Of a DNA stretch of 64,000 bases, positions 4,049-61,945 are shown in pieces. Both the position numbers and the translations under genes were made by a program. This DNA comes from Escherichia coli (GTDB lineage Bacteria > Pseudomonadota > Gammaproteobacteria > Enterobacterales > Enterobacteriaceae), in the NCBI RefSeq assembly GCF_048403405.1, contig NZ_CP183136.1, one strand, 5' to 3'. Numbering within the stretch: position 1 is the stretch's first letter; the number at the start of each line of letters is the position of its first letter. The notes under the pieces were generated by a model that saw only the letters and a list, made by a program, of their open reading frames with translations, was not told the origin of the DNA and made no database searches.

Positions 4049-4164
4049 AGGGAAATAAATTTTGACTTTGTTCAAATATCAGACTTTTTAATGGTTCAAA
4101 CTGATGACAATAATCGAGAGATAATTAGTATATTAATTACGTGGTTAATGCCACGTTAAAATTT

Positions 4165-4245
4165 GAACTTGAAAATCGCCGATGCAGGGAGCTTGTCCCT
4201 CCCTGCATCGACTGTCCATAGAATCCTTTGTGAGGAGGTTCCTAT
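4165..4245 (-). ncRNA. finP: FinP antisense RNA (approximate bounds)
   Basis: Perfect stem-loop cgatgcagggag-cttgtc-ctccctgcatcg at 4180..4210 in the traJ leader, plus a second hairpin over the traJ RBS and start; bounds inferred. Confidence 0.5.
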
Positions 4246-4938
4246 GTATCCGATGGATCGTATTCAACAAAAACATGCTCGTCAAATCAGATCTGCTGGA
4301 AAATCTGACGGCAGTTATTCAGGATTATCCAAATCCAGCCTGTATCAGGGACGAAACTGGAAAATTTATTTTTTGCAATACGCTGTTTCATGAGTCATTT
4401 CTTACACATAGATCAAAGTGCTGAAAAATGGCTTCTGTCGCAGAGAGATTTTTGTGAATTGATCTCTGTCACAGAGATGGAAGCATACAGGAATGAGCAT
4501 ACGCATCTTAATCTTGTAGAGGATGTTTTTATTCAGAACAGATTCTGGACAATATCTGTCCAGTCATTTCTTAATGGACACAGAAATATTATTACTGGTG
4601 GCAATTTTATGATGCTGCTCATGTTCGTCATAAAGACAGTTATAATCAAAAAACGATTGTCAGTGATGATATCAGAAATATAATCAGAAGAATGAGTGAT
4701 GATTCTTCTGTATCATCATATGTAAATGATGTCTTTTACTTATATAGCACCGGAATCAGTCATAATGCTATAGCAAGAATATTAAATATATCCATCTCCA
4801 CATCAAAGATAACACGCATCTCTGATATGCGACTACTTCTCTGTTTCTAATAAAGATGAGTTAATTATCTTACTCTACAATAAAAAGTTTATTTATTATT
4901 TATACGAGAAGGCTATGTGTATCATAAATACGCGTTAA
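4244..4938 (+). pseudogene. traJ: TraJ transfer activator, multiply frameshifted
   Basis: ORFs 4163..4393, 4182..4424 and 4390..4683 in three frames carry consecutive TraJ-like segments (MYPMDRIQQKHARQI / DLLENLTAVIQDYPNPACIRDETGKF / DQSAEKWLLSQRDFCELISVTEMEAYRNEH). Confidence 0.7.
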
Positions 4939-22660: not shown

Positions 22661-25348
22661 ATGAAGTTTATGTGATTGCCGGTGGTGAATGGTTGCGGAA
22701 TAACCTGAACGCCATTGCCGCCTTTATGGGAACCAGGACGTGGGATTCCATTGAAAAAATTGCTCTCACCCTGTCTGTTGTTGCGGTGGCCTTTATGTGG
22801 GTACAGCGGCACAACGTGATGGATTTGCTGGGCTGGGCGGCGGTGTTTGTGCTTATCAGCCTGCTGGTTAATATCCGTACGTCGGTGCAGATTATTGATA
22901 ACAGTGACCTGGTCAAAGTCCATCGGGTGGATAATGTGCCGGTCGGACTGGCGATGCCACTTTCACTGACGACCCGTATCGGGCATGCAATGGTGGCCAG
23001 TTACGAGATGATCTACACGCAACCGGACAGTTTCACCTACAGCAAAACGGGGATGCTGTTTGGCGCAGAACCTGGTATGCAAAAAGCACCGACTTTTTGT
23101 CCCGCAATCCGGAAATCGCCAATCTTTTTCAGGATTATGTGCAGAACTGTGTGATGGGGGATATTTACCTGAACCACAAATACACGCTGGAGGAGCTGAT
23201 GGCCTCCGCTGATCCCTACACGCTGATTTTTTCCCGCCCCAGTCCGCTGCGGGGCGTTTATGACAGCAATAATAATTTCGTGACCTGTAAGGACGCGTCG
23301 GTTTCGCTGAAAGACAAGCTGAATCTGGACACACAGACGTGGCGGCAAAACCTGGCATTATTATGTGCAGCAGATATTTGGCGGTCAGCCCGGATCCGGA
23401 CCTGTTATTCAGTGCAACTGGTTGAGTGACAGTTACCGTTATTTCTACGGCTCCAGCCAGTCTGCCAGTCAGATCATGCGCCAGAACGTCACCATGAATG
23501 CGCTGAAGGAGGGTATCACCAGTTATGCAGCCCGTAACGGTGACTACCGCCAGCCTGGTGAATCTGGCCACCACGTCATCGATGGAGAAGCAACGTCTGG
23601 CACATGTCTCCATTGGTCATGTGGCTGATGCGAAACACTGCCGATGGCGCAGACCATTCTGGTGGGCATTACCATCGGTATTTTCCCGCTCCTGGTACTG
23701 GCGGCTGTCTTCAACAAACTGACGCTGTCTGTTCTGAGAGGCTATGTGTTTGCCCTGATGTGGTTGCAGTCATGGCCAATGTTGTATGCCATTCTGAACA
23801 GCGCCATGACATTTTATGCGAAGCAGAATGGTGCACCGGTGGTGCTCTCGGAAATTTCACAGATACAGCTGAAATACTCCGATCTGGCTTCCACTGCCGG
23901 GTATCTTTCCATGATGATACCCGCCATTATCCTGGATGATGGTCAGAGGCCTTGGCGCCGGTTTTTCCAGCGTGTACAGCCATTTCGCTTCCTCTGCTAT
24001 CAGCCCGACTGCCAGTGCGGCAGGCAGTGTGGTTGACGGTAATTACTCCTACGGCAACATGCAGACGGAAAACGTGAACGGCTTCAGCTGGAGCACCAAC
24101 AGCACCACGTCGTTTGGTCAGATGATGTACCAGACCGGCAGTGGCGCAACTGCCACACAGACCCGTGACGGTAATATGGTGATGGATGCAAGCGGAGCGA
24201 TGTCCCGTTTACCGGTTGGTATCAATGCAACGCGTCAGATTGCAGCGGCACAACAGGAAATGGCCCGGGAGGCGTCGAACAGAGCAGAAAGCGCCCTGCA
24301 TGGTTTCAGCAGCAGTATTGCCAGTGCCTGGAACACGCTCAGTCAGTTTGGTTCTAACCGGGGGAGCAGTGATTCTGTCACCGGTGGCGCTGACAGCACC
24401 ATGAGTGCACAGGACTCCATGATGGCCAGCCGTATGCGCAGTGCAGTGGAAAGCTATGCGAAGGCGCATAATATCAGTAATGAGCAGGCGACTCAGGAAC
24501 TGGCATCAACAGGTTCTAGGTTCTCGTCTGGCGGAATGTATGCAGATGCTCATGCTGAATGGGGGATTAAACCTGAAATTCTTGGTGTTGGTGGTGGGGT
24601 TGGTGTCAGAGGCGGGTTTAAGGGAAGTCTTGGATGCGAACGGATGATGACTCACATTCTGCAAGTAGTGGCAGCAGAGCTACCCATGATGCTCGCCATG
24701 ATATTGACGCTAAAGCCAGTACAGGACTTTAAAGAAGCCAGCGATTACTTTACCAGTCGCAAGGTCAGTGAGTCCGGCAGCCATACTGACAATAATGCTG
24801 ACTCCCGGGTGGACCAGTTGTCTGCAGCCCTGAACTCAGCGAAACAGAGTTACGACCAATACACGACGAATATGACCCGCAGCCATGAATATGCGGAAAT
24901 GGCCTCCCGTACTGAAAGCATGAGCGGGCAGATGAGTGAAGACCTGTCGCAACAGTTTGCACAGTATGTGATGAAACGCGCACCGCAGGATGCAGAAGCT
25001 ATTCTGACAAATACCAGTTCGCCGGAGATTGCAGAACGTCGTCGGGCGATGGCATGGTCTTTTGTGCAGGAACAGGTACAGCCTGGTGTTGATAATGCCT
25101 GGCGGGAATCCCGTGGCGATATTGGTAAAGGAATGGAGAGCGTACCTTCGGGTGGTGGCAGTCAGGATATTATTGCTGACCATCAGGGACATCAGGCCAT
25201 TATTGAGCAAAGAACGCAGAACAGTAATATCCGTAATGATGTAAAACATCAGGTTGATAATATGGTCACAGAATATCGTGGCAATATCGGAGATACTCAG
25301 AACAGTATCCGTGGCGAGGAAAATATTGTAAGACGGGCAGTATTCTGA
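22657..25348 (+). pseudogene. traG: TraG, mating-pair stabilisation / entry exclusion, multiply frameshifted
   Basis: Starts at GTG (VNEVYVIAGGEWLRNNLNAIAAF); successive segments in ORFs 22495..23154, 23097..23429, 23365..23628, 23644..24036 and 23936..25348 in different frames. Confidence 0.7.
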
Positions 25349-29367: not shown

Positions 29368-32300
29368 TGTTGAGTTTCAGCGTTGGTTAAATCGGCAGGC
29401 AGTGCCGGAAACTATTACACCGACAAGGATAATTACTATGTGCTGGGCAGCATGGGAGAACGCTGGGCTGGTCAGGGGGGCTGAACAGCTTGGGACTGCA
29501 GGGCAGCGTCGATAAGGATGTTTTTACCCGTCTTCTGGAGGGCAGGCTGCCGGACGGAGCGGATTTAAGCCGCATGCAGGATGGCAGTAATAAGCATCGT
29601 CCCGGCTACGACCTGACCTTCTCCGCCCCCAAAAGTGTCTCCATGATGGCCATGCTCGGGGGCGATAAACGCCTGATTGATGCACATAACCAGGCCGTGG
29701 ATTTTGCTGTCCGTCAGGTGGAGGCGCTGGCTTCCACACGGGTGATGACGGACGGACAGTCAGAAACGGTGCTGACCGGTAATCTGGTGATGGCACTGTT
29801 TAACCATGACACCAGTCGCGATCAGGACCCACAGTTACACACGCATGTAGTGGTGGCTAATGTCACGCAGCATAACGGCGAGTGGAAGACACTGAGCAGT
29901 GACAAAGTGGGGAAAACCGGATTTATCCGAGAACGTGCTACGCGAACCGGATTGCGTTCGGGAAGATCTATCAGAGTGAGTTACTGTCAGCGCAGGTTGA
30001 GGCGCTGGGTTATGAAACCGAAGTGGTCGGTAAGCACGGTATGTGGGAGATGCCGGGCGTACCGGTGGAGGCCTTTTCCAGTCGTTCACAGGCTATCAGG
30101 GAGGCCGTCGGTGAAGACGCCTCGCTGAAATCCCGGGATGTGGCGGCACTGGATACGCGAAAATCCAAACAGCACGTCGATCCGGAAATCAGAATGGCTG
30201 AATGGATGCAGACGCTGAAGGAAACCGGGTTCGACATCCGGGCATATCGTGACGCGGCGGATCAGCGTGCGGAGACCCGCACGCAGGCGCCCGGGGCTGT
30301 TTCACAGGAGGGGCCGGATGTGCAGCAGGCGGTGACACAGGCCATTGCCGGATTAAGTGAACGAAAAGTGCAGTTTACGTACACGGACGTGCTGGCCAGA
30401 ACGGTCGGTATACTGCCGCCGGAAAATGGTGTGATTGAACGGGCACGCGCCGGTATCGATGAGGCCATCAGTCGTGAGCAGCTTATCCCCCTCGACCGTG
30501 AGAAGGGGCTGTTCACATCAGGAATTCATGTGCTCGATGAGCTGTCCGTCCGGGCACTCAGTCGTGACATCATGAAACAGAACCGGGTGACCGTACATCC
30601 GGAGAAAAGTGTCCCCCGGACGGCTGGTTACAGCGATGCGGTCAGTGTTCTGGCACAGGACCGTCCGTCGCTGGCCATTGTGTCCGGGCAGGGCGGTGCA
30701 GCCGGGCAGCGTGAGCGGGTGGCTGAACTGGTCATGATGGCCCGGGAGCAGGGGCGGGAGGTGCAGATTATCGCTGCTGACCGTCGCTCGCAGATGAACC
30801 TGAAGCAGGATGAACGGCTGTCCGGTGAGCTGATAACCGGACGTCGTCAGCTGCAGGAGGGCATGGTCTTCACGCCGGGCAGTACTGTTATCGTCGACCA
30901 GGGCGAAAAACTCTCCCTGAAAGAGACGTTAACCCTGCTGGACGGTGCCGCACGTCATAACGTACAGGTCCTGATAACCGACAGCGGGCAGCGAACCGGT
31001 ACAGGCAGTGCGCTGATGGCCATGAAGGATGCCGGGGTGAACACGTATCGCTGGCAGGGCGGAGAACAGCGACCGGCAACCATCATCAGTGAACCGGACC
31101 GGAATGTCCGCTATGACCGGCTGGCCGGAGATTTTGCGGCCAGCGTGAAAGCCGGAGAAGAGAGCGTGGCACAGGTCAGCGGGGTACGGGAACAGGCCAT
31201 ACTGACACAGGCCATTCGCAGTGAGCTGAAAACACAGGGCGTGCTCGGACACCCGGAGGTGACCATGACCGCCCTGTCACCGGTCTGGCTGGACAGCCGG
31301 AGCCGTTATCTGCGGGATATGTACCGACCGGGGATGGTGATGGAGCAGTGGAACCCGGAGACACGCAGTCATGACCGCTATGTTATCGACCGGGTGACGG
31401 CGCAGAGTCACAGCCTGACCCTGCGGGATGCGCAGGGCGAAACGCAGGTGGTGCGTATTTCCTCCCTGGACAGCAGCTGGTCGCTGTTCCGGCCGGAAAA
31501 AATGCCGGTGGCAGACGGCGAGCGACTGAGGGTGACAGGGAAAATTCCCGGACTCCGCGTCTCCGGCGGTGACCGCCTGCAGGTGGCATCCGTCAGTGAA
31601 GATGCGATGACGGTTGTTGTGCCGGGGCGGGCTGAACCGGCCACCCTGCCTGTGGCTGATTCACCGTTCACGGCACTGAAGCTGGAGAACGGCTGGGTGG
31701 AAACGCCCGGGCATTCCGTCAGTGACAGTGCGACGGTGTTTGCCTCCGTCACACAGATGGCAATGGACAACGCCACCCTGAACGGTCTGGCCCGCAGCGG
31801 TCGTGATGTCCGGCTGTATTCCTCACTGGATGAAACCCGTACTGCGGAAAAACTTGCCCGCCATCCCTCCTTTACGGTGGTTTCTGAGCAGATAAAGGCG
31901 CGGGCCGGTGAGACATCGCTGGAAACCGCTATCAGTCTGCAGAAAACCGGGCTGCACACGCCGGCACAGCAGGCCATTCATCTGGCCCTTCCTGTGCTGG
32001 AAAGTAAAAACCTGGCCTTCAGCATGGTGGACCTGCTGACAGAGGCGAAGTCGTTTGCTGCAGAAGGAACCGGTTTTACTGAACTGGGAGGGGAAATCAA
32101 TGCGCAGATAAAACGCGGTGACTTACTGTATGTGGATGTGGCAAAAGGCTATGGCACAGGCCTGCTGGTTTCTCGTGCGTCGTATGAGGCAGAAAAAAGT
32201 ATTCTTCGCCATATTCTCGAAGGTAAGGAGGCGGTCACGCCGCTGATGGAGAGAGTACCCGGCGAACTCATGGAGACGTTAACGTCGGGACAGCGTGCCG

Positions 32301-37025: not shown

Positions 37026-37577
37026 AATAAGGCTTCTCTGAAACCTTCTTCCATACCCGGCAGAAGAAGGTTATAAAAATTTATAACACATTCACCGGCC
37101 TGGATTAAAGGGGGAAGGAAAATGAACGGAACAGGGCGTGATTCGCAAAACTCCGGGGTATGGCGCTACCGGCAGGTCGGACGCCGGGCTGTCCGGCTGG
37201 AAGTCAGGGGGACTGGCCGGGAGCCGCTGAGGCATGGCTACGGGCTGCGCAGTCTGCTCCCCGGACAGACTGGCAGCAGTTTGCCCGAAAAAGGGCTGAA
37301 CACTGCCACCGGCGCTGCCGGGGAAGGGTGTAACGAAAAAGCAGCCTTCATTACTCCAGGGATTCAGAAGGCTGAATAATGCATGAGATTTGCTTTTTTT
37401 AATATCCGGTCGGAAAGTATGACCGGACAGTTCTGAGTAGCACAGAGTTTTTTCCATATTAAGTCGTGATTTTATATTTTGTGATTAATTTCACAAAATA
37501 AGGTGTTATTCAGTGTGTGCTGCGATATTCAGGATTACCTGAAATACAGGTGCCATTTATCTGATATGGAGAATAAC

Positions 37578-39469: not shown

Positions 39470-39570
39470 TTTAAGGAATTTTGTGGCTGGCCACGCCGTA
39501 AGGTGGCAGGGAACTGGTTCTGATGTGGATTTACAGGAGCCAGAAAAGTGAAAACCCCGATAATCTTCAG
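39470..39570 (-). ncRNA. copA: CopA antisense RNA (approximate)
   Basis: Position between copB and tap/repA1 in a RepFII replicon; bounds not resolved. Confidence 0.4.
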
Positions 39571-39654
39571 CAAGTTTGGCGACTAAGAAGAAGATTAACG
39601 GGGCTAACAAGAAACCGCATAGAAGCTGTTGCTCTATGCGGGGAGTATAGTTAT

Positions 39655-51063: not shown

Positions 51064-51417
51064 TTAGTTTATTAACTTCATCGCATTCTTTTTTGTCTCC
51101 TCATCACTTTTTTGCTCCGATTGTGAAGAGGACTGAATGATTGTTGAAGAATTTAAATCGGCCATCTCTTTTGGAAATAGCGATCTCAATATATTCACGA
51201 TATCTGAAAATGTGGTTTCTTTCGTCAGCAGTTCACATAAAAGGAAAGGGGCCCTGGGATCTTGTCTGTATAAGGCCAGACCTGCCGTCAGTGCAGCCCG
51301 GTTAAGGCGGCTGCGTTCCCCTTGCGGGATACTGTCCAGTGTATCACAAACAATTTTATCTGTTTGATTTACATCTGGATTTAGCTTAAAGGCAATGGTT
51401 CTGCGCTTGTCCATCAT
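51064..51417 (-). CDS. parR: ParR (StbB) centromere-binding protein
   Basis: 117-aa ORF downstream of parM. Confidence 0.8.
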   Translation of the reverse strand: MMDKRRTIAFKLNPDVNQTDKIVCDTLDSIPQGERSRLNRAALTAGLALYRQDPRAPFLLCELLTKETTFSDIVNILRSLFPKEMADLNSSTIIQSSSQSEQKSDEETKKNAMKLIN

Positions 51418-52379
51418 TAATTACCTATGAGATACATACCGTTAACTAAATCATATTGAGAGTTATTGGTTTTAAAAAAACGTTCATCACGAATCTGTGT
51501 GTGTTTTTTTACTGCATCGCATATTAATTCTGCGCCACCACCTATAACCATAACATGAGTATAACCAGAAAATTCATTGAGTGTATTTAATACACGTTGC
51601 TCAAGTTTACGAAGTGCTTCATTCATTGCTTCGGTGACTATTGATATTTTGTTCTCATCATTAATTCGTTGCTTCAGATAGTTATTATCTTTTCTGTGAA
51701 TAATTATATCATCAGCAAGATAGCTACTTCCTTTTGTTCTCGCAAGAGAAAGGGCATCTTTTACTGCAGATGTGACCAGAGATACACCAAGAGATGAGTC
51801 TCCGTATATTTTACTGATCCCCGATAATTTCCCCATTACCTGAGAAATATCTAATGTGGTGCCCCCGAGATCTATAATTAATAAAGAATCTAACTCATCC
51901 AGTTCTTGTAGAACTTCATAACCTGCCGGTATAGATTCAGGCATGACTTTTACATCTTTTATTGTGAATGTATCCCCACCATTTAATGTAATTTTTTTCC
52001 GGAAGTTTGCTTTCTTACGCTCAATATTTTCCGTATTGGGTTGGTTATTCCTGTCGTAATACTCTGTCAGAGGAAGTGTGCAAACAATATCCACTTCGCT
52101 TACCGGCAGACCACTGGTCAGTAAGGCGTGGTGCACCGCAACGACATTAACGTCGCTGTATTGCCATGCGATATTGGTTGTGACTACAGCATCCGGGCTG
52201 ATTGGATCAAATGAATACTGTTCGCCGTTCAGTGTGTAGTTAAAGACCTTTTTATCACCAAAAGAAACTGCCCACTCGCGTTTGAAGCTGTTCGGGCTAA
52301 TGTGCTGTTTAATTGTTCCGTCGCTTTCCTGCCACTGTAGTTTGATGTTTGTTGAACCGTCATCAATGAATACCAACAT
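51417..52379 (-). CDS. parM: ParM (StbA) actin-like partition ATPase
   Basis: 320 aa, [16 protein letters not shown]... with actin-fold phosphate motifs ([16 protein letters not shown]). Confidence 0.9.
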
Positions 52380-52384
52380 TTATA

Positions 52385-52560
52385 AAACTCCTTATGGTGT
52401 TTTTTTGGTGTTTGTTTGGGTGTGTTTTGGGCTTTAAATGGGTTTATTTGTCAAGTTTACCCCATTTTAACTATCAATCAATGATTATTTGTCTTGTTTT
52501 GGTGTTTTGTTGGGCTTGGTATGGGTTGTTTTTGGGTTTTGTTTGGCGGATAACAAAAGA
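52385..52560 (-). other. parC: parC centromere
   Basis: Tandem short iterons (ggtgtttgtttgg variants) directly upstream of parM. Confidence 0.65.
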
Positions 52561-52870
52561 TGTCGCCGGGCTCCTCTTTTTACTGCGCCGGCTGACGCGG
52601 CGCGGCATAAACGCTGCCTGTGGTCAGTGTCCCGCGTCCGGTGGGCACGGGACGGGCGCTTTTACCGCTCCCGGCTGGCGTCGGTGACAGTGTACGCCAG
52701 CCTGTCGCCCTTTTCTGATGAACGCCCTTCAAGCCGCTTTCGCGGCATAGCCTTGCCGTCAGAAAGACGACGGCTGCGGTATTCCACGGTCGGCCTGACC
52801 CGTTACCGGACGCGGTGAACAGCCCACAGGCAGCGGGGAACGGGCGCCACAGGGGCGCCCTCCCGATGCT
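52555..52870 (+). repeat. About 320-bp leading-region repeat, family 2, copy 1
   Basis: Near-identical to 53855..54185; GC-rich; ends at the start codon of the downstream gene. Confidence 0.8.
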
Positions 52871-52873
52871 CCT

Positions 52874-53815
52874 GTGAGGATAATTCCCATGCCAAACTGG
52901 TGCTCGAATCGTATGTATTTTTCTGGTGAACCGGCACAGATCGCTGAGATTAAACGACTGGCCAGCGGTGCAGTCACACCGCTTTATCGCCGCGCCACAA
53001 ATGAAGGTATTCAGCTGTTTCTGGCCGGAAGTGCCGGACTTCTGCAGATCACTGAAAATATCCGCTCTGAGCAGTGCCCCGGAGTGACGGCTGCCGGACG
53101 TGGTGCTGTATCACTGGAAAATATCGCGTTCACCCGCTGGCTGACACACCTGCAGAACGGTGTACTGCTGGATGAGCAAAACTGCCTGATGCTGCATGAA
53201 CTCTGGCTGCAGAGCGGTACTGGACAGCGTCGCTGGGAAGGGTTACCGGATGATGTCAGGGAAACTATCACTGTGCATTTCACCGCAAAAAGAGGTGACT
53301 GGTGTGACATCTGGGGTAACGAGGATGTATCGGTGTGGTGGAACCGTCTGTGTGACAACGTACTGCCGGAAAAAACCATGCCGTTTGACCTGCTGACGGT
53401 TTTGCCGACCCGCCTGGATATTGAAGTGAATGGCTTTAACGGCGGTGTTCTGAACGGTGTTCCTTCTGCATATCACTGGTATACAGAACGGTATGGCGTG
53501 AAGTGGCCTTGTGGGTATGACCTGAATATCAGCAGTCAGGGGGAAAACTTCATTCAGGTGGATTTCGACACGCCGTGGTGTCAGCCGGAAAGCGACGTTG
53601 TTGCAGAATTAAGCCGCCGTTTCGGCTGCACGCTGGAGCACTGGTACGCCGAACAGGGCTGCAATTTCTGTGGCTGGCAGTTGTATGAGCGCGGAGAGCT
53701 TGTTGATGTGCTGTGGGGGGAACTGGAATGGTCTTCCCCGACAGATGACGATGAGCTGCCGGAAGTCACCGGACCTGCGTGGATAGTCGACAATGTGACG
53801 CATTATGGCGGATGA
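52874..53815 (+). CDS. Hypothetical leading-region protein (313 aa)
   Basis: Long ORF bracketed by the family-2 repeats; no family recognised. Confidence 0.6.
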   Translation: MRIIPMPNWCSNRMYFSGEPAQIAEIKRLASGAVTPLYRRATNEGIQLFLAGSAGLLQITENIRSEQCPGVTAAGRGAVSLENIAFTRWLTHLQNGVLLDEQNCLMLHELWLQSGTGQRRWEGLPDDVRETITVHFTAKRGDWCDIWGNEDVSVWWNRLCDNVLPEKTMPFDLLTVLPTRLDIEVNGFNGGVLNGVPSAYHWYTERYGVKWPCGYDLNISSQGENFIQVDFDTPWCQPESDVVAELSRRFGCTLEHWYAEQGCNFCGWQLYERGELVDVLWGELEWSSPTDDDELPEVTGPAWIVDNVTHYGG

Positions 53816-53854
53816 AGTATGACGGAGACGGGCGGGCAACCGCCCGTTTCTTTT

Positions 53855-54185
53855 CCGACAAAGGATGTCGCCGTGCTCCTCTTTTTACTGCGCCGGCTGA
53901 CGCGGCGCGGCATAAACGCTGCCTGTGGTCAGTGTCCCGCGTCCGGCGGGCACGGGGCGGGCGCTTTTACCGCTCCCGGCTGGCGTCGGTGACAGTGTAC
54001 GCCAGCCCGTCGCCCTTTTCTGATGAACGCCCTTCAAGCCGCTTTCGCGGCATAACCTTGCCGTCAAAAAGACGACGGCTGCGGTATTCCACGGTCGGCC
54101 TGACCCGTTACCGGACGCGGTGAACAGCCCACAGGCAGCGGGGAACGGGCACCACAGGGGTGCCCTCCCGGTGCCCTCTGTAAGA
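53855..54185 (+). repeat. About 320-bp leading-region repeat, family 2, copy 2
   Basis: Near-identical to 52555..52870; abuts the methyltransferase start. Confidence 0.8.
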
Positions 54186-54198
54186 GAAGGAGTTTCGT

Positions 54199-54882
54199 AT
54201 GTCCCGTTTTGTCCTCGGTAACTGCATCGATGTTATGGCCCGTATTCCTGATAACGCCATTGATTTCATCCTCACCGACCCGCCATATCTCGTCGGTTTC
54301 CGTGACCGTTCCGGGCGCACCATCGCCGGCGATAAAACCGATGAGTGGCTGCAACCGGCCTGTAATGAAATGTTCCGCGTGCTGAAAAAAGACGCGTTAA
54401 TGGTGAGCTTCTACGGCTGGAACCGCGTCGATCGCTTTATGGCCGCCTGGAAAAATGCGGGATTCAGCGTTGTTGGTCACCTGGTCTTCACCAAAAACTA
54501 TACATCGAAGGCCGCATATGTGGGCTATCGCCACGAATGCGCCTACATCCTGGCAAAAGGCCGTCCACGTCTGCCACAAAACCCGCTGCCGGACGTGCTG
54601 GGCTGGAAATATTCGGGCAATCGCCATCACCCGACGGAAAAGCCCGTTACCAGCCTGCAACCGCTGATTGAGAGCTTCACACACCCGAACGCAATTGTGC
54701 TGGACCCGTTTGCAGGCAGCGGCTCAACCTGCGTCGCCGCCCTCCAGTCCGGACGCCGGTATATCGGTATCGAGCTGCTTGAGCAGTATCACCGTGCCGG
54801 GCAGCAACGCCTTGCCGCCGTGCAACGGGCCATGCAGCAGGGGGCCGCGAATGATAACTGGTTTATGCCGGAGGCTGCGTAA
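54199..54882 (+). CDS. Orphan DNA methyltransferase (beta-class amino-MTase, DPPY motif)
   Basis: Motifs ILTDPPY and VLDPFAGSGST; no adjacent restriction endonuclease. Confidence 0.8.
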   Translation: MSRFVLGNCIDVMARIPDNAIDFILTDPPYLVGFRDRSGRTIAGDKTDEWLQPACNEMFRVLKKDALMVSFYGWNRVDRFMAAWKNAGFSVVGHLVFTKNYTSKAAYVGYRHECAYILAKGRPRLPQNPLPDVLGWKYSGNRHHPTEKPVTSLQPLIESFTHPNAIVLDPFAGSGSTCVAALQSGRRYIGIELLEQYHRAGQQRLAAVQRAMQQGAANDNWFMPEAA

Positions 54883-55104
54883 ATGAACTATGCAGGACAC
54901 GAAAAACTGCGCGCCGAAGTGGCGGAGGTGGCCAATGCCATGTGCGACCTGCGTACAACCATGAATGAGATGGAGCAGCGGTACAGCTTTAATGCCGACA
55001 CCCTGCCGGAACGTCTGGTGCGTCAGACGCTGTTTCGCGCAAACCGCCTCCTGATGGAGGCATATACCGAAATTCTGGAACTGGATGCGTGCTTTAAAGA
55101 TTGA
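54883..55104 (+). CDS. Hypothetical protein (73 aa)
   Basis: ORF directly after the methyltransferase. Confidence 0.4.
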   Translation: MNYAGHEKLRAEVAEVANAMCDLRTTMNEMEQRYSFNADTLPERLVRQTLFRANRLLMEAYTEILELDACFKD

Positions 55105-55117
55105 GAAGGAGACGAGA

Positions 55118-55552
55118 ATGTACGGAACATGCGAAACGCTATGCCGGGAGCTGGCAGTAAAGTATCCGGGAGACATGCCGCTGATGCTGGTTATCTGGTC
55201 CCCGGAAGAGATTCAGGCCCTCGCTGACGGAATGGATATTTCCCTGTCCGATCATGAAATCAGAACCGTCCTGGCGCGCCTGGAGGACATCCCGGAAGAC
55301 CAGCGGACTGAATCCGGTATTTCTTCCGGCGTGGCGATGGAGATCATCAATAACGTGAGCGAAAACCGCCAGGTGACCGTCCCTGCTGAACTGCTGGCGT
55401 CCCTGATTCAGACCGCTGAACAGGCATTGTGGAAACGTGAATGGGCCGCCCGGGATCATGGCCTCGCCGTCCCGGAATGCGTCACCCGCCGTCAGGCGGT
55501 GATTAATCAGGCCCGCACCCTGCTGAAAAACAACAGACACGAAAACGACTGA
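55118..55552 (+). CDS. Hypothetical protein, paralogue of 57260..57679
   Basis: RBS ggagacgag before ATG; shares the RQVTVPA motif and N-terminal MY.T pattern with 57260..57679. Confidence 0.55.
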   Translation: MYGTCETLCRELAVKYPGDMPLMLVIWSPEEIQALADGMDISLSDHEIRTVLARLEDIPEDQRTESGISSGVAMEIINNVSENRQVTVPAELLASLIQTAEQALWKREWAARDHGLAVPECVTRRQAVINQARTLLKNNRHEND

Positions 55553-55597
55553 TGTTATCGCCGCCTCCGGGCGGCGATTCAGGGAGAACGATTAATC

Positions 55598-56374
55598 ATG
55601 AACGAAAACACAACGCTGAACGCACTGATTTGTCGCCACGCCCGTAACCTGCTGCTGGCGCAGGGCTGGCCGGAAGAGACGGATGTTGACCAGCGAAATC
55701 CGAACCATCCGGGCTGGATCAGCATTTACGTGCGGCTGGATGCGCCCCGGCTGGCGACGTTACTTATCAACCGTCACGGCGGCGTACTGCCGCCGGTCCT
55801 GGCGTCTGCCATGCAAAAACTGACCGGAACCGTGGCGGAACTTGTACTGTCCGGCAGCCAGTGGCAGGCGCTGCCGGTACTTCCGGCAGACGGAACGCAG
55901 GTGTTTTTCCCGTATGCCGGTGAATGGCTGACGGAGGAAGAAATCAGGGCAGTTCTTGATGCGGTGCGCAATGCAGTACGAAGCATCTGTTACCAGGTGG
56001 CAGACGATGCGCGGCGTATCCGGGCGGCGCTGACCACCACCGGTCAGACGTTGCTGACCCGGCAGACGCGCCGCTTTCGTCTGGTTGTGAAGGAAAGCGA
56101 TTACCCCTGCTGGCTTGATGAAGATGACGAAAATCTGCCCGTGGTGCTCGATGCCATTCTGAACCGTGGCGCCCGTTTTTCCTCTGTGGAAATGTACCTG
56201 GTCTGTGAGTGTGTGGAGCATATCCTGGCCAGTGGTCTGGTCTGTGATGTGCTGCGTATACCGGATGAACCGTCCCGTCGCTGGTTTGACAGGGATATTC
56301 TGCGGGAGGTTGTTCTGGAGGCACGGGATGAAATCCGCAGCATGGCGGATGCACTGGCGAAAATCAGGGGCTGA
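55598..56374 (+). CDS. Hypothetical protein (258 aa)
   Basis: Long ORF in the leading region. Confidence 0.55.
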
Positions 56375-56379
56375 TGATG

Positions 56380-56790
56380 GCGGGGAAAATCCCCGCCTTT
56401 TTCCTGCCGGTCCCCGGACAGAGCACAAAGGAAGTCGCCGCCGGCTCCGCTTTACCCGGCCATGCGGGGCATGGCCTTGTGGGGGTTCAGTTATGTGGCC
56501 TCAGCGTCGTGTGCGGGCTGTGCCGTGCCTCCATCGTAGCCGGGCTTCTGCGGGCGGGTTGCAAGGTAAGGTGAACCGCTGCGGTCACCCGGTCCCTCCT
56601 TCCCGTCTGCCGTGATTTTCCGGTCGTTCACCCGCTCAGATTTCGCGGTCTCACCCTCCAACTCCCGCCAGCCGTGTGCGTCAGGCTGCGGCTTCCCTTG
56701 CGCCCTTGCAACCCTGCAGGCCCGGCAAAGATGGAGGCACGGCACCGCCCGGTGTCGCGGAATATGTGAACAACGGAGGAAAACATCATG
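56380..56790 (+). promoter_or_regulatory. Structured GC-rich intergenic region upstream of the klcA homologue
   Basis: Long-range inverted repeats (tgccgtgcctccatc at 56519.. pairs with gatggaggcacggca at 56730..; ttgcaagg / ccttgcaa). Confidence 0.5.
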
Positions 56791-57213
56791 CAATATGCGA
56801 AACCTGTCACTCTGAACGTTGAAGAGTGTGACCGTCTCTCCTTTCTGCCTTACCTGTTTGGCAACGATTTTCTGTATGCCGAGGCGTATGTGTACGCGCT
56901 GGCGCAAAAAATGATGCCGGAATATCAGGGAGGCTTCTGGCATTTCATCCGCCTGCCGGACGGTGGCGGTTACATGATGCCGGATGGCGACCGTTTTCAT
57001 CTGGTCAACGGTGAAAACTGGTTTGACCGCACTGTGAGTGCTGATGCCGCAGGTATCATCCTGACTTCCCTTGTGATTAACCGCCAGTTGTGGCTGTACC
57101 ACGACAGCGGGGATGCGGGACTGACACACCTTTACCGGATGCGCGATGCGCAGTTGTGGCGTCACATCGAATTTCACCCCGAATGCAATGCGATTTACGC
57201 GGCACTGGACTGA
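56788..57213 (+). CDS. klcA: KlcA/ArdB-family anti-restriction protein homologue
   Basis: 141 aa, resembles KlcA/ArdB from recall (LSFLPYLFG...[15 protein letters not shown]...[12 protein letters not shown]). Confidence 0.7.
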
Positions 57214-57259
57214 TTAACGGACGGGGCGGCGATGCCGCCCCTGTAAAGGAGACGAGAAC

Positions 57260-57679
57260 ATGTACTGTACTGTTAAAGAAATTATCCGCGAAGTGCTGGA
57301 TACAGACGTGCCGGACAGTGAATGCGTTTTTGCCGTGGTGCTGACCCGTGGGGATGTGCGTCACATAGCCCAGGACTGGAGTCTGACAGACGATGAGCTG
57401 GAAACCGTCATGCAGCGGCTGGACGATGCCTTTGAGCATGGTGCTGATGTCAGCATTGTTCACGACGTTGTTTGTGAACTGATGGAAGAAAAGCGCGCCA
57501 GCCGTCAGGTGACAGTCCCGGCGGTGATGCTGGAAAAAGTGATGGCGCTGGCAGGCAGTGAAATGAAGCGCCTGTATGCCGTCGGGAGTGAGAACGGGGG
57601 CGACGGTGACGCATTTGTCAGGGAAGAACGTGAGATTATGCGGGTGATGCGTCAGGCGCTGGACGGGGAGAATGGGTAA
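57260..57679 (+). CDS. Hypothetical protein, paralogue of 55118..55552
   Basis: RBS aaggagacgag; shared RQVTVPA motif. Confidence 0.55.
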   Translation: MYCTVKEIIREVLDTDVPDSECVFAVVLTRGDVRHIAQDWSLTDDELETVMQRLDDAFEHGADVSIVHDVVCELMEEKRASRQVTVPAVMLEKVMALAGSEMKRLYAVGSENGGDGDAFVREEREIMRVMRQALDGENG

Positions 57680-57870
57680 TGAATATCAGCAAGGAAACCC
57701 GCGAAATTCTGCGTAATTACAGGGCCGTGATTAATGCGCGGCGTCGTGAAATGGGGCAGAAACCGCTCACCACCGCGCAGATTGTTGATGAAATATGTGA
57801 TTTTGTGGTGAATCAGCAGGCTGTTTTCCTCGGTGGTCACTACATCCTTCAGGGCAGCAGGCACAGGTGA
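57679..57870 (+). CDS. Hypothetical protein (63 aa)
   Basis: ORF overlapping the previous stop. Confidence 0.35.
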   Translation: MNISKETREILRNYRAVINARRREMGQKPLTTAQIVDEICDFVVNQQAVFLGGHYILQGSRHR

Positions 57871-58065
57871 TACAGGGCAGGCGGTGGAGGCCGCCTGTCA
57901 GCCCGCGCGAAAACCCCTGGCAGGCTGGCGCCTGCCGGAAGGGAAGCGGGCCACGCTGGCGCGTCGCCCGTTACCCTTCCCGTTTGTGATGTGTCCGGAA
58001 TGTTTTTTCCTGATGTTATGTTTCTGTGGTTACTGTTCTTCTTCTTCCTCTTCTTTCCGTTCCTC

Positions 58066-58603
58066 TCCTGTTTATGCCTTTTCCGGGCGTCCCCCTGGCG
58101 GGGCGGGCTGTCGTGAACGGAGCCAGCGGAGCTGTCTCCGCCCTGGCGGGCTTCCATCCCTGACGCAAAACCCCGGGTTTGCAGCGACCGGAACGGTCGC
58201 GCCACCCCTGTCGCGCCGTGGCCTGCGCTCCCGGCATCCCGGCAAAAAGACGCCGGGATGTAAGGAGCAACGCCGTTTCGCAAACCGCGCTTCACGTCGT
58301 TGCAGCGGGTCCCTGCTCATTGCCTGCCGGGTGCCACACACCCGTATGAGTCCCTGTCGCCGGGGGCTGATACAGCCACAACCTGCCGCACTGACTGTCC
58401 AGGGTAAATGAACAGCCCACAAAATTTTTTACCCAAAACCCGGTAAAAAATTTTGCGTTCTGCCCAGGACAGGTGCGTCAGGCCGTGGCAGTGATGCCCC
58501 TTGCGGCGAAGGTTCTCAAACGGGTGAAGTTCATACCACAGGGAATACAGCAGCAGGTTCCCGCGAAACGTCAAAACCGCGGCTCCCGAAACTCAACGGG
58601 TGA
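58066..58603 (+). repeat. Frpo-like leading-region repeat, copy B
   Basis: Near-identical to copy C at 61376..61908 and similar to copy A. Confidence 0.8.
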
Positions 58604-58837
58604 TGTTCTTTAAAAATCAGGATTTATTTCAGGCTCCGGCAATACGCATTTATGTGTTCTGTCAGTCATCCGGCTGGCAGGTAATGAAAACGCAGGAACA
58701 GAAGGAGGAAAACACCGGAAAGCGTCAGATGCAGATATGAAAAAAAGCAGGTCAGGGACCTGCTTAATCCACGCCGTAAGAATTGTGCGACCAATTTTGA
58801 CGGCATTGTTAACCAATTTGTCATAAGGAATCCATTT

Positions 58838-59068
58838 ATGACTGTAAGCATTGTTTCACCTTCCGCAGCGGCTGTAAAGCCCCGCCGTCATCCCCGTTTC
58901 AGACGCGAAGACATCCCCGCGCCGGAACTTGACCCCGTGCTGAAAGCCTTCGGGCGACACATTGCCCGGAGTTTTCGCCGGGGGCGTGGTGTACACATCC
59001 CCGCCATGAAAAACACGGCCTTCGGGCAGGTGCTCCGCACACTCGAACTGAAACGCGCTTTTAACTGA
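58838..59068 (+). CDS. Hypothetical basic protein (76 aa)
   Basis: ORF downstream of Frpo copy B. Confidence 0.4.
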   Translation: MTVSIVSPSAAAVKPRRHPRFRREDIPAPELDPVLKAFGRHIARSFRRGRGVHIPAMKNTAFGQVLRTLELKRAFN

Positions 59069-61091: not shown

Positions 61092-61270
61092 TGACTCCGG
61101 GCAGGCGGGAGGATAAATGCCCGTCTGCCCGCGCCGGGAAAAGACCGCGCGCCGGTGGCGCTGAAAGGGGCCGCGCTTACGCGCCGCCCCTTTCATTACG
61201 CGGACGTTCTGCTGTGGGCTTCTGTCTTTTCAGACCTGTCATTTGCTTGTTACTGATGATGTTGTTGTTC

Positions 61271-61327
61271 CTGCTACTGCTACTGCTACTGCTACTGCTA
61301 CTGCTACTGCTACTGCTACTGCTACTG
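61271..61327 (+). repeat. Hexanucleotide microsatellite (CTGCTA), about 9.5 units
   Basis: Directly visible perfect period-6 repeat. Confidence 0.95.
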
Positions 61328-61375
61328 TTCTTCTTTTTTCTGCTGCTCTGATTACTGTCTGTTTTGTTGTTCTCC

Positions 61376-61908
61376 TGCTTATGCCTTTTCCGGGCGTCCC
61401 CCTGGCGGGGCGGGCTGTCGTGAACGGAGCCAGCGGAGCTGTCTCCGCCCTGGCGGGCTTCCATCCCTGACGCAAAAACCCGGGTTTGCAGCGACCGGAA
61501 CGGTCGCGCCACCCTTGTCGCGCCGTGGCCTGCGCTCCCGGCATCCCGGCAAAAGACGCCGGGATGTAAGGAGCAACGCCGTTTCGCAAACCGCGCTTCA
61601 CGTCGTTGCGGCGGGTCCCTGCCCGTTGTTCTGTCCGGTGCCATTCACCTGTTTAAGCCCCTGTCGCCGGGGGCATAGACAGCCACAACCTGCCGCACTG
61701 ACTGTCCAGGGTAAATGAACAGCCCACAAAATTTTTTACCCAAAACCCGGTAAAAAATTTTGCGTTCTGCCCAGGACAGGTGCGTCAGGCCGTGGCAGTG
61801 ATGCCCCATGCGGCGAAGGTTCTCAAACAGGTGATGGTGAATACCGGAGGGAACAAAAGGCAGGTCCCCGCAAAACGTCAAAACCGCGGCTCCCGAAACT
61901 CAACAGAT
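61376..61908 (+). repeat. Frpo-like leading-region repeat, copy C, upstream of ssb
   Basis: Near-identical to copy B; ends about 40 bp before the ssb start. Confidence 0.8.
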
Positions 61909-61945
61909 GATGGGGGCTGAAAACATCAACAGAAGGAGACACATC

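Follow-up and report, generated by a model that had tools for sequence, protein, structure and literature searches.

What are the genes for that lie between an orphan DNA methyltransferase and a repeated Frpo-type element in the leading region of F-type plasmids? The question is raised by positions 54883-57870 of a 64,000-nucleotide (nt) stretch of Escherichia coli DNA (contig NZ_CP183136.1, hereafter the window), in which a preliminary description made from the sequence alone had listed six open reading frames (ORFs) of no recognisable family as plausible undescribed anti-defence or establishment factors. Here we show that five of the six are genes under purifying selection, and that together with the methylase and a KlcA/ArdB anti-restriction gene they make up two operons, both preceded by a large conserved hairpin of the single strand, in the middle of an F-type leading region. 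We hold it somewhat probable that the five encode zygotic accessory proteins that bind host proteins. The original observation is largely correct and its interpretation reasonable, but both are already in the literature, where the genes and the establishment idea are known down to family level.

F-type plasmids are the main antibiotic-resistance carriers in E. coli, Klebsiella and Salmonella, and at least 5000 sequenced plasmids contain the block described here. Its seven genes, five of them uncharacterised, probably belong to those that a new host expresses first. Through the targets of these five proteins, new barriers to conjugation on the host side could come to light, and possibly means of stopping plasmids from spreading.

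Two operons of conserved genes in the leading region

The interval occupies the centre of the IncF leading region within the window. The ORF listing confirms the coordinates first assigned to its ORFs, all on the + strand, and the location had also been recognised correctly: the genes point toward the origin of transfer (oriT), the transferred strand (T-strand) is their template, and the order from the methylase to ssb is that of F, in which oriT lies beyond psiB. The genes accord with the leading-region definition of Samuel et al., a position within about 28 ORFs of oriT in an orientation permitting T-strand transcription, and the matching families have median positions of 15-21 (PMC11541004; Table 1).

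The first operon comprises the methylase, orf73, DUF1380 paralogue A and YchA, the second KlcA, DUF1380 paralogue B and orf63 (Table 1). The stop codon of the methylase abuts the start of orf73 (TAAATG), a gap of 13 nt separates orf73 from DUF1380-A, and the stop codon of DUF1380-B overlaps the start codon of orf63 (TAATG). The sole intrinsic terminator between the operons lies 3' of the YchA stop codon, and its hairpin is kept in pO157. Two further GC-rich stem-loops, both without a T-tract, are found between genes: ATCGCCGCC-TCCG-GGCGGCGAT between DUF1380-A and ychA (55556-55577) and GGGGCGGC-GAT-GCCGCCCC between klcA and DUF1380-B (57217-57240). Their role may lie in processing or stability within the operon, or they may be structures of the single strand.

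Comparison with pO157 separates genes from chance reading frames. Across the five uncharacterised genes the ratio of non-synonymous to synonymous substitution rates (dN/dS) is 0.12-0.28, and substitutions are biased to the third codon position in all five; the counts over the three positions are 9, 6 and 27 in orf73 (dN/dS 0.16) and 2, 3 and 10 in orf63 (dN/dS 0.12), and DUF1380-B has a dN/dS of 0.19. The corresponding ratios for the methylase and KlcA are 0.12 and 0.08. The sixth proposed gene, at 56374-56574, does not survive this comparison: its substitutions are spread 8, 8 and 6 over the codon positions and accompanied by indels, whereas the real genes show a clear third-position excess, and in pO157 its frame stops after 6 codons, even though the terminator hairpin that it overlaps has been conserved. 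This ORF has no family match in NCBIfam, PHROGs or PADLOC and is called by DFAST-style annotation of a related plasmid (L001), but not by the Prokaryotic Genome Annotation Pipeline (PGAP) of RefSeq. Given the missing coding signature, the closed frame and its absence from RefSeq PGAP, we reject it as a gene.

The same data weigh on the idea that the ORFs have no function of their own and are hitch-hiking or decaying, carried along with the methylase, klcA and the hairpins. That one of the six is spurious, and that pO157, although typed as non-mobilizable, retains the whole block, would fit such an account. It is nevertheless made very improbable by the low dN/dS and third-position bias of the remaining five, by the at least 5000 plasmids carrying the block, by homologues that persist in synteny at 22-49% identity and by a YchA fold that is predicted with high confidence.

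The plasmids in question were found by megablast against PLSDB, with the block full-length at 90-97% nucleotide identity, and the majority are conjugative and come from Escherichia, Klebsiella, Salmonella and Shigella; orf73 likewise occurs in at least 5000 plasmids, as does orf63 at 90% identity or more. IncF replicons are present in all four annotated plasmid records inspected, and the taxonomic range of the block's families is the Enterobacterales. Annotated relatives and F share one order, in which partition genes, DUF1281, a DNA methylase, a small hypothetical protein, DUF1380 and a 258-amino-acid (aa) hypothetical protein are followed by an 'antirestriction protein', a second DUF1380, another small hypothetical protein and then the ssb/psiB part of the leading region. 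The partition genes 5' of the block are of ParM/StbA type in two records and sopA/sopB in pO157 and F. In F itself (NC_002483, 54166-57837) gene order, orientation, intergenic hairpins and terminator are all as in the window, with amino acid identities of 93% for the methylase, 77% for orf73, 92% for DUF1380-A, 88% for YchA, 99% (98.6%) for KlcA, 93% for DUF1380-B and 94% for orf63. The corresponding names are ycgA/B-ychA-klcA-ycjA in R100-style IncFII plasmids (PMC10654068) and YubF, YubG, YubI and YubJ in F.

Table 1. Features of the interval and its surroundings, with the matching leading-region gene families of Samuel et al. (PMC11541004)
Feature	Coordinates	Strand	Remarks	Samuel family	Members	Median position from oriT
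Putative single-stranded DNA (ssDNA) promoter hairpin, operon 1	53858..54157	+	second copy of 300-nt direct repeat
Orphan DPPY N6-adenine DNA methyltransferase	54199..54882	+	first gene of operon 1; outside the interval under study	8 (methylase)	3753	21
orf73, small acidic protein	54883..55104	+	phrog_4830, E=3.9e-34	11 (YfcA), probably	3388	20
DUF1380 paralogue A (YcgB/YubF)	55118..55552	+	144 aa, acidic, all-helical	7 (DUF1380/YcgB/YubF)	3957	19
YchA/YubG/NgrC-family protein	55598..56374	+	258 aa; last gene of operon 1	10 (YchA/YcfA/YubG)	3556	18
66-aa ORF, judged non-gene	56374..56574	+	overlaps terminator and left arm of klcA-upstream hairpin
Intrinsic terminator ending operon 1	56379..56402	+	GGCGGGGAAAATCCCCGCC then TTTTT
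Putative ssDNA promoter hairpin, operon 2 (klcA)	about 56500..56765	+	inverted-repeat arms and fold
KlcA/ArdB anti-restriction protein (YubI)	56788..57213	+	operon 2	9 (KlcA)	3645	16
DUF1380 paralogue B (YcjA/YubJ)	57260..57679	+	139 aa, strongly acidic	14 (YcjA/YubJ/PF07128)	3145	15
orf63, small basic protein	57679..57870	+	operon 2, after DUF1380-B
Frpo-type repeated element ('copy B')	58019..58605	+	downstream boundary of block

The proteins and their families

The two genes that had been singled out as a paralogue pair are indeed related. Their products are 32% identical over 111 aa (BLASTP, E=2e-10), both begin with MY.T and both contain RQVTVPA without a difference; across 56 aligned family members, M1, Y2, T4 and the positions of R-x-V-x-V-P-A are invariant or nearly so. 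The near-identical ribosome-binding sites also noted before correspond to a 13-mer, AAGGAGACGAGAA, found precisely twice in the 64 kb, just upstream of each paralogue's start (57246-57258 for paralogue B); its chance expectation is 0.06, and two matches were reached in 0 of 100 shuffles. The view that these proteins belong to no recognisable family does not hold, as both match Pfam DUF1380 (PF07128), paralogue A over the full model (E=2.8e-52) and paralogue B over model positions 1-102 (E=3.8e-4). The membership of B is backed by its RefSeq name, 'DUF1380 family protein', alongside its BLASTP match to A. Paralogue A is also assigned to a PHROG family and has an all-helical AlphaFold2 (AF2) model, and paralogue B has an isoelectric point (pI) of 4.45 and a net charge of -15. 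A phage origin, as the PHROG matches might suggest, was rejected: DUF1380 had no match in IMG/VR, and a 245-nt fragment was all that matched in the GenBank phage set.

'Adenine-specific methyltransferase' is the public-database name of many DUF1380 proteins, and family 14 appears as a putative methylase in the legend to Fig. 1c of Samuel et al. (PMC11541004). As a description of the DUF1380 proteins in the window we reject it: neither paralogue matches a methylase family in NCBIfam, PADLOC or Pfam, the DUF1380 profile aligns to the neighbouring methylase with an hhalign probability of 0.2%, and the model of copy A is all-helical. Because the window's DUF1380 proteins show no methylase features, the name looks like one propagated from the neighbouring gene. 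The titles and abstracts of papers mentioning DUF1380 offer nothing on its function.

Since each paralogue shares an operon with one anti-restriction gene, and the two have an identical 13-nt ribosome-binding site, the main rival explanation is that they are dedicated partners of the adjacent functions, A of the methylase and B of KlcA, which they would tune, target or stabilise. More distant plasmids bear on this in both directions. Contigs with remote YchA homologues (22-27% identity, tblastn) keep the order DUF1281, a variable part, YchA, a gap of 350-420 nt and KlcA; in two of them, L005 and L006, which have a Rep3-type replicon, a KlcA of only 43% identity is followed by a DUF1380-B-type protein of 46-49% identity, with the motif as RTVTIPA and an hhalign probability of 98.7%. 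The order YchA-hairpin-KlcA-DUF1380-B thus persists down to 22-49% identity, a new observation and evidence that the KlcA-DUF1380-B linkage is ancient. That adjacency is kept at such distance speaks for a partnership. It is weakened by an IncI-like contig (L003), which has ardA after klcA and yielded no DUF1380, and by L005, where the methylase is missing and the ORF at position A is no DUF1380; this 156-aa ORF was considered as a divergent member and rejected at an hhalign probability of 4%. Moreover, IncP and IncN plasmids carry klcA/ardB and are not known to carry DUF1380, and in the published in vivo assays of anti-restriction KlcA or ArdB was reportedly expressed on its own. We regard dedicated partnership as unlikely.

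The 258-aa ORF, also listed as without a family, belongs to the YchA/YubG/NgrC family of UniProt and AFDB and to a PHROG family as well. It has no Pfam match even at E<=10 and no PDB sequence match, whether searched as a single sequence or as a profile; a profile-free search of 1.84 billion representatives returned 184 relatives, many of them fragments. Its predicted structure (predicted local distance difference test, pLDDT, 90.4; predicted template modelling score, pTM, 0.84) is a two-lobed alpha/beta protein ending in long helices. All 50 of the 50 Foldseek matches listed from AFDB50 are either named YchA, NgrC or YubG or unnamed, and those named by organism all come from the Enterobacterales. 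A confident model without a solved structural neighbour is predicted for YchA, which is new here. The residues conserved in the alignment, W24, P25, A144, R155, W229 and R243, suggest no catalytic centre. The label 'ArdA' attached to YchA family 10 stems from a match carried by 10 of its 3556 members (PMC11541004, Supplementary Table 1); YchA has no sequence or fold similarity to ArdA, and we reject the assignment.

For orf73, too, the absence of a family was a misjudgement, given its PHROG match (Table 1), although it has no match in the Pfam copy searched; a newer Pfam accession, PF27407, sits on the orf73 part of frameshift-fusion artefacts in precomputed annotations. For orf63 no family reached the thresholds applied in NCBIfam, PHROGs, PADLOC or Pfam, the only Pfam match being DUF7420 at E=0.024. 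The possibility that orf73 and orf63 form a second paralogue pair was rejected, as no alignment between them was found.

Four of the five uncharacterised proteins are acidic (pI 4.45-5.24, orf73 having a pI of 4.9), and orf63 is basic (pI 10.0). The basic character of orf63, and the overlap of its start with the DUF1380-B stop, make it a candidate nucleic-acid-binding regulator, and more generally some or all of the proteins might act on the plasmid itself, by controlling how the leading region is expressed, in the conversion of single into double strands or in making the plasmid circular again. In favour of this, SSB and the ParB-like HerB, with DNA or host transcription as their targets, are encoded in leading regions too, and the genes discussed here are placed between several structured DNA elements. 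Pfam searches, however, detect no DNA-binding domain in any of the five, and the acidity of four of them fits poorly, which together render an action on the plasmid quite unlikely.

As a group, the five have no enzyme, defence or anti-defence family in Pfam, NCBIfam, PHROGs or PADLOC, all matches being to families of unknown function. None matched a defence component in PADLOC-DB, where the methylase alone did, and none has a significant match by sequence to a solved structure in the PDB, with single sequences or profiles. The two genes with named functions had been identified correctly. The DPPY methyltransferase matches NCBIfam NF010253 (E=1e-150) and PADLOC MTase_II (E=3.9e-144). The KlcA/ArdB homologue matches KlcA in the PDB (2kmg, E=2.7e-18), 2wj9 (E=2.2e-8) and phrog_10132, 'anti-restriction protein'. 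The ORFs flanking KlcA have no match to KlcA/ArdB structures in the PDB sequence searches. The in vivo data in the literature on alleviation of type I restriction concern other KlcA/ArdB members only.

Hairpins, Frpo elements and published records

Directly upstream of each operon lies a large conserved T-strand hairpin, the feature by which an ssDNA promoter would be recognised; Frpo/ssi elements make up class 1 of such promoters. The first belongs to a 300-nt direct repeat, of which it is the second copy; the other copy, 97% identical, lies at 52553-52852, 5' of the DUF1281 gene, and inverted repeats of 30-31 nt are present in both. Folded as T-strand, 53840-54200 reaches -102.9 kcal/mol (z=-5.5, here and below relative to shuffled controls), and the intergenic stretch that holds this hairpin (53816-54198) is 96% identical to F. 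By analogy, we infer that it is a class 3 ssDNA promoter as described by Wen et al. ORFs of the window at 52489-52818 and 53779-54123 overlie the 300-nt repeats, and RefSeq lists 'hypothetical proteins' there in a related plasmid (L002, 2985-3296 and 4290-4601); these are probably spurious translations of hairpin DNA.

The hairpin upstream of klcA has 32-nt arms (56514-56545 and 56720-56751) that are 91% complementary, and the T-strand fold of 56375-56800 has z=-5.3. The intergenic stretch around it is 90% identical to F. The hairpin is found in pO157 and in two divergent plasmids; in an alignment of the four versions 13 of 52 pairs have changed on both sides, and GCCGTGCC and GGCACGGC do not vary. 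In L003 (z=-3.0) and L005 (z=-6.3), a hairpin of the same kind forms in the gap before klcA. A -10-like hexamer (TACGAT, TACAGT or TATAGT, identified by eye) is kept, but its spacing to the candidate -35 is inconsistent between plasmids, and we do not claim -35 and -10 hexamers here.

Such hairpins have been studied in transconjugants. Wen et al. removed the donors, sequenced transconjugant RNA and found six leading-region operons of pESBL induced up to about 500-fold, with starts inside hairpins by 5' rapid amplification of cDNA ends (5' RACE); new class 2 promoters lie 5' of klcA and of ardA, and M.EcoGIX is preceded by a class 3 promoter (PMC12672017). For F, the study reports that transcripts rise in transconjugants for the two operons 5' of Frpo2, those with the KlcA and M.EcoGIX homologues, and it describes the class 2 and class 3 ssDNA promoters as conserved there (PMC12672017). 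Zygotic induction of the KlcA- and methylase-encoding F operons is thus taken from that study. Because the genes of the window are 77-99% identical to those of F in amino acids, and the hairpin stretches 90-96% in nucleotides, its two operons would be the same as these induced F operons.

The genes themselves have been catalogued, so that 'undescribed' no longer applies to them. Samuel et al. clustered the leading-region genes of 21,907 elements, and families 7-11 and 14, all encoded for T-strand transcription (strand=1), are among the 14 largest leading-region-enriched families (PMC11541004). Families 7, 10 and 14 and probably 11 cover the uncharacterised proteins described here; the equation of orf73 with family 11 is based on position and the name YfcA only. 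The non-annotated families were flagged as uncharacterised and likely anti-defence roles were proposed for them (PMC11541004). The same table labels families 7, 11 and 14 'adenine-specific methyltransferase' and family 10 'ArdA' (PMC11541004); these labels derive from database names or from few members, and both fail for the DUF1380 and YchA proteins of the window. For none of the five uncharacterised proteins did a literature search turn up work on function; by gene name (yubF-K, ychA) it returned mostly unrelated papers. The published catalogue gains nothing from the finding itself. What is added here is a gene map from which one spurious ORF has been cleared, the correction of two misleading database labels, a YchA without solved structural neighbour, and the ancient linkage of KlcA and DUF1380-B.

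Downstream, the block is bounded by an Frpo copy, correctly identified as such: 58019-58605 matches 61326-61912, upstream of ssb, at 90-96%, and its T-strand fold has z=-10. The segment 57871-58837 is 90% identical to the region upstream of ssb in F. In F, orf63 is followed by one Frpo and then directly by ssb, whereas in the window a further segment headed by Frpo intervenes before the copy at ssb; as F lacks this inter-Frpo segment, the plasmid has an extra Frpo-headed operon. Between the Frpo copies lie orf76, a 453-aa DUF3560 protein and a 187-aa class I S-adenosylmethionine (SAM) methylase. A 192-aa ORF over the Frpo (57833-58411) was considered as Pfam DUF1472 and rejected, having no match. 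Simple repeats vary inside the otherwise 90-96% identical elements, with a tandem run of CTG/CTA triplets in the ssb-proximal copy (61248-61355) and a TTC-rich run at the equivalent place in the other (58039-58066). An Rfam match to AS-pc01 ('antisense to pHK01_035') on the - strand at 58742-58843 scores 79.4 bits against a gathering score of 79; it lies just upstream of the orf76 start and overlaps it, and a terminator-like hairpin is present on the - strand at 58765-58745.

Elsewhere in the window, Rfam finds the traJ 5' untranslated region/FinP, AS-traG, AS-traI, AS-pc02 and CopA (4139-4250, 23379-23467, 32224-32300, 37230-37413 and 39546-39637); the window therefore spans the tra region and an IncFII-type replicon besides the leading region, and it probably holds most of one plasmid. 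GT-rich repeats with 11-nt spacing at 52386-52550, directly upstream of a parM/stbA gene (51417-52379, - strand), resemble the parC centromere iterons of the ParMRC system.

A proposed role and comparison with known systems

In the reading that we favour, both operons would be transcribed toward oriT off the incoming transferred strand. The hairpins, formed on single-stranded DNA in the new host, would pass for double-stranded promoters, and the genes would be expressed briefly, until synthesis of the complementary strand. From the promoter at 53858-54157 transcription would proceed through the methylase, orf73, DUF1380-A and YchA to the terminator, and from that at about 56500-56765 through KlcA, DUF1380-B and orf63, each induced transcript presumably including every gene drawn here. 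The five uncharacterised products, soluble proteins without catalytic motif, would act as stoichiometric binders of host proteins in the first minutes of establishment, and so assist the methylase and KlcA as accessory factors that counter defences or modulate the host. A binding role is suggested by proteins that are small, charged and free of catalytic motifs, and by a YchA that diverges faster than its neighbours; the YchA divergence (22% identity, against 43% for KlcA, with order kept) would fit a protein facing variable host partners.

Several points count against this account. The AF2 model of the DUF1380 protein is only moderately confident (pTM 0.45), and the assignment of the hairpins as promoters in this plasmid is putative, on the basis of homology to F and pESBL. 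For none of the five proteins was sequence or fold similarity to any solved anti-defence protein found, and the literature searched yielded no experiment linking them to defence evasion or establishment. Furthermore, the leading-region protein HerB/YfjB reprograms host transcription with no defence blocked (PMC13370423), and because HerB acts in this way, location in a leading region does not by itself imply anti-defence. On balance, we still consider binding of host proteins somewhat probable. A bolder proposal, which we put forward tentatively and with considerable doubt, is that YchA and/or the DUF1380 paralogues found new anti-defence families directed against host immunity or DNA surveillance other than restriction enzymes, or else extend the in vivo-only activity of KlcA/ArdB, and that ssDNA promoters bring about their expression as soon as an F-type resistance plasmid has entered, in the first minutes.

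Among known systems, the closest comparison is KlcA/ArdB itself (PF03230; PDB 2kmg), with which the uncharacterised ORFs share operon, leading-region location and, presumably, early expression, and which is likewise small, acidic and non-enzymatic. Unlike KlcA, they show no sequence or fold similarity to the family, of which 56788-57213 is the only member here. Acidic DNA mimics of the ArdA/Ocr type are also small acidic proteins made early from entering DNA, to which the pI of 4.45 and charge of -15 of DUF1380-B may be compared. HerB/YfjB of F offers a third parallel, as another conserved protein of the leading region with zygotic induction, characterised as late as 2026 (PMC13370423). It is a CTP-binding, ParB-like DNA-binding protein expressed from Frpo, whereas the window ORFs have no ParB, helix-turn-helix or nucleotide-binding signatures. 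The case of HerB indicates that the function of such genes is solvable by deletion combined with multi-omics.

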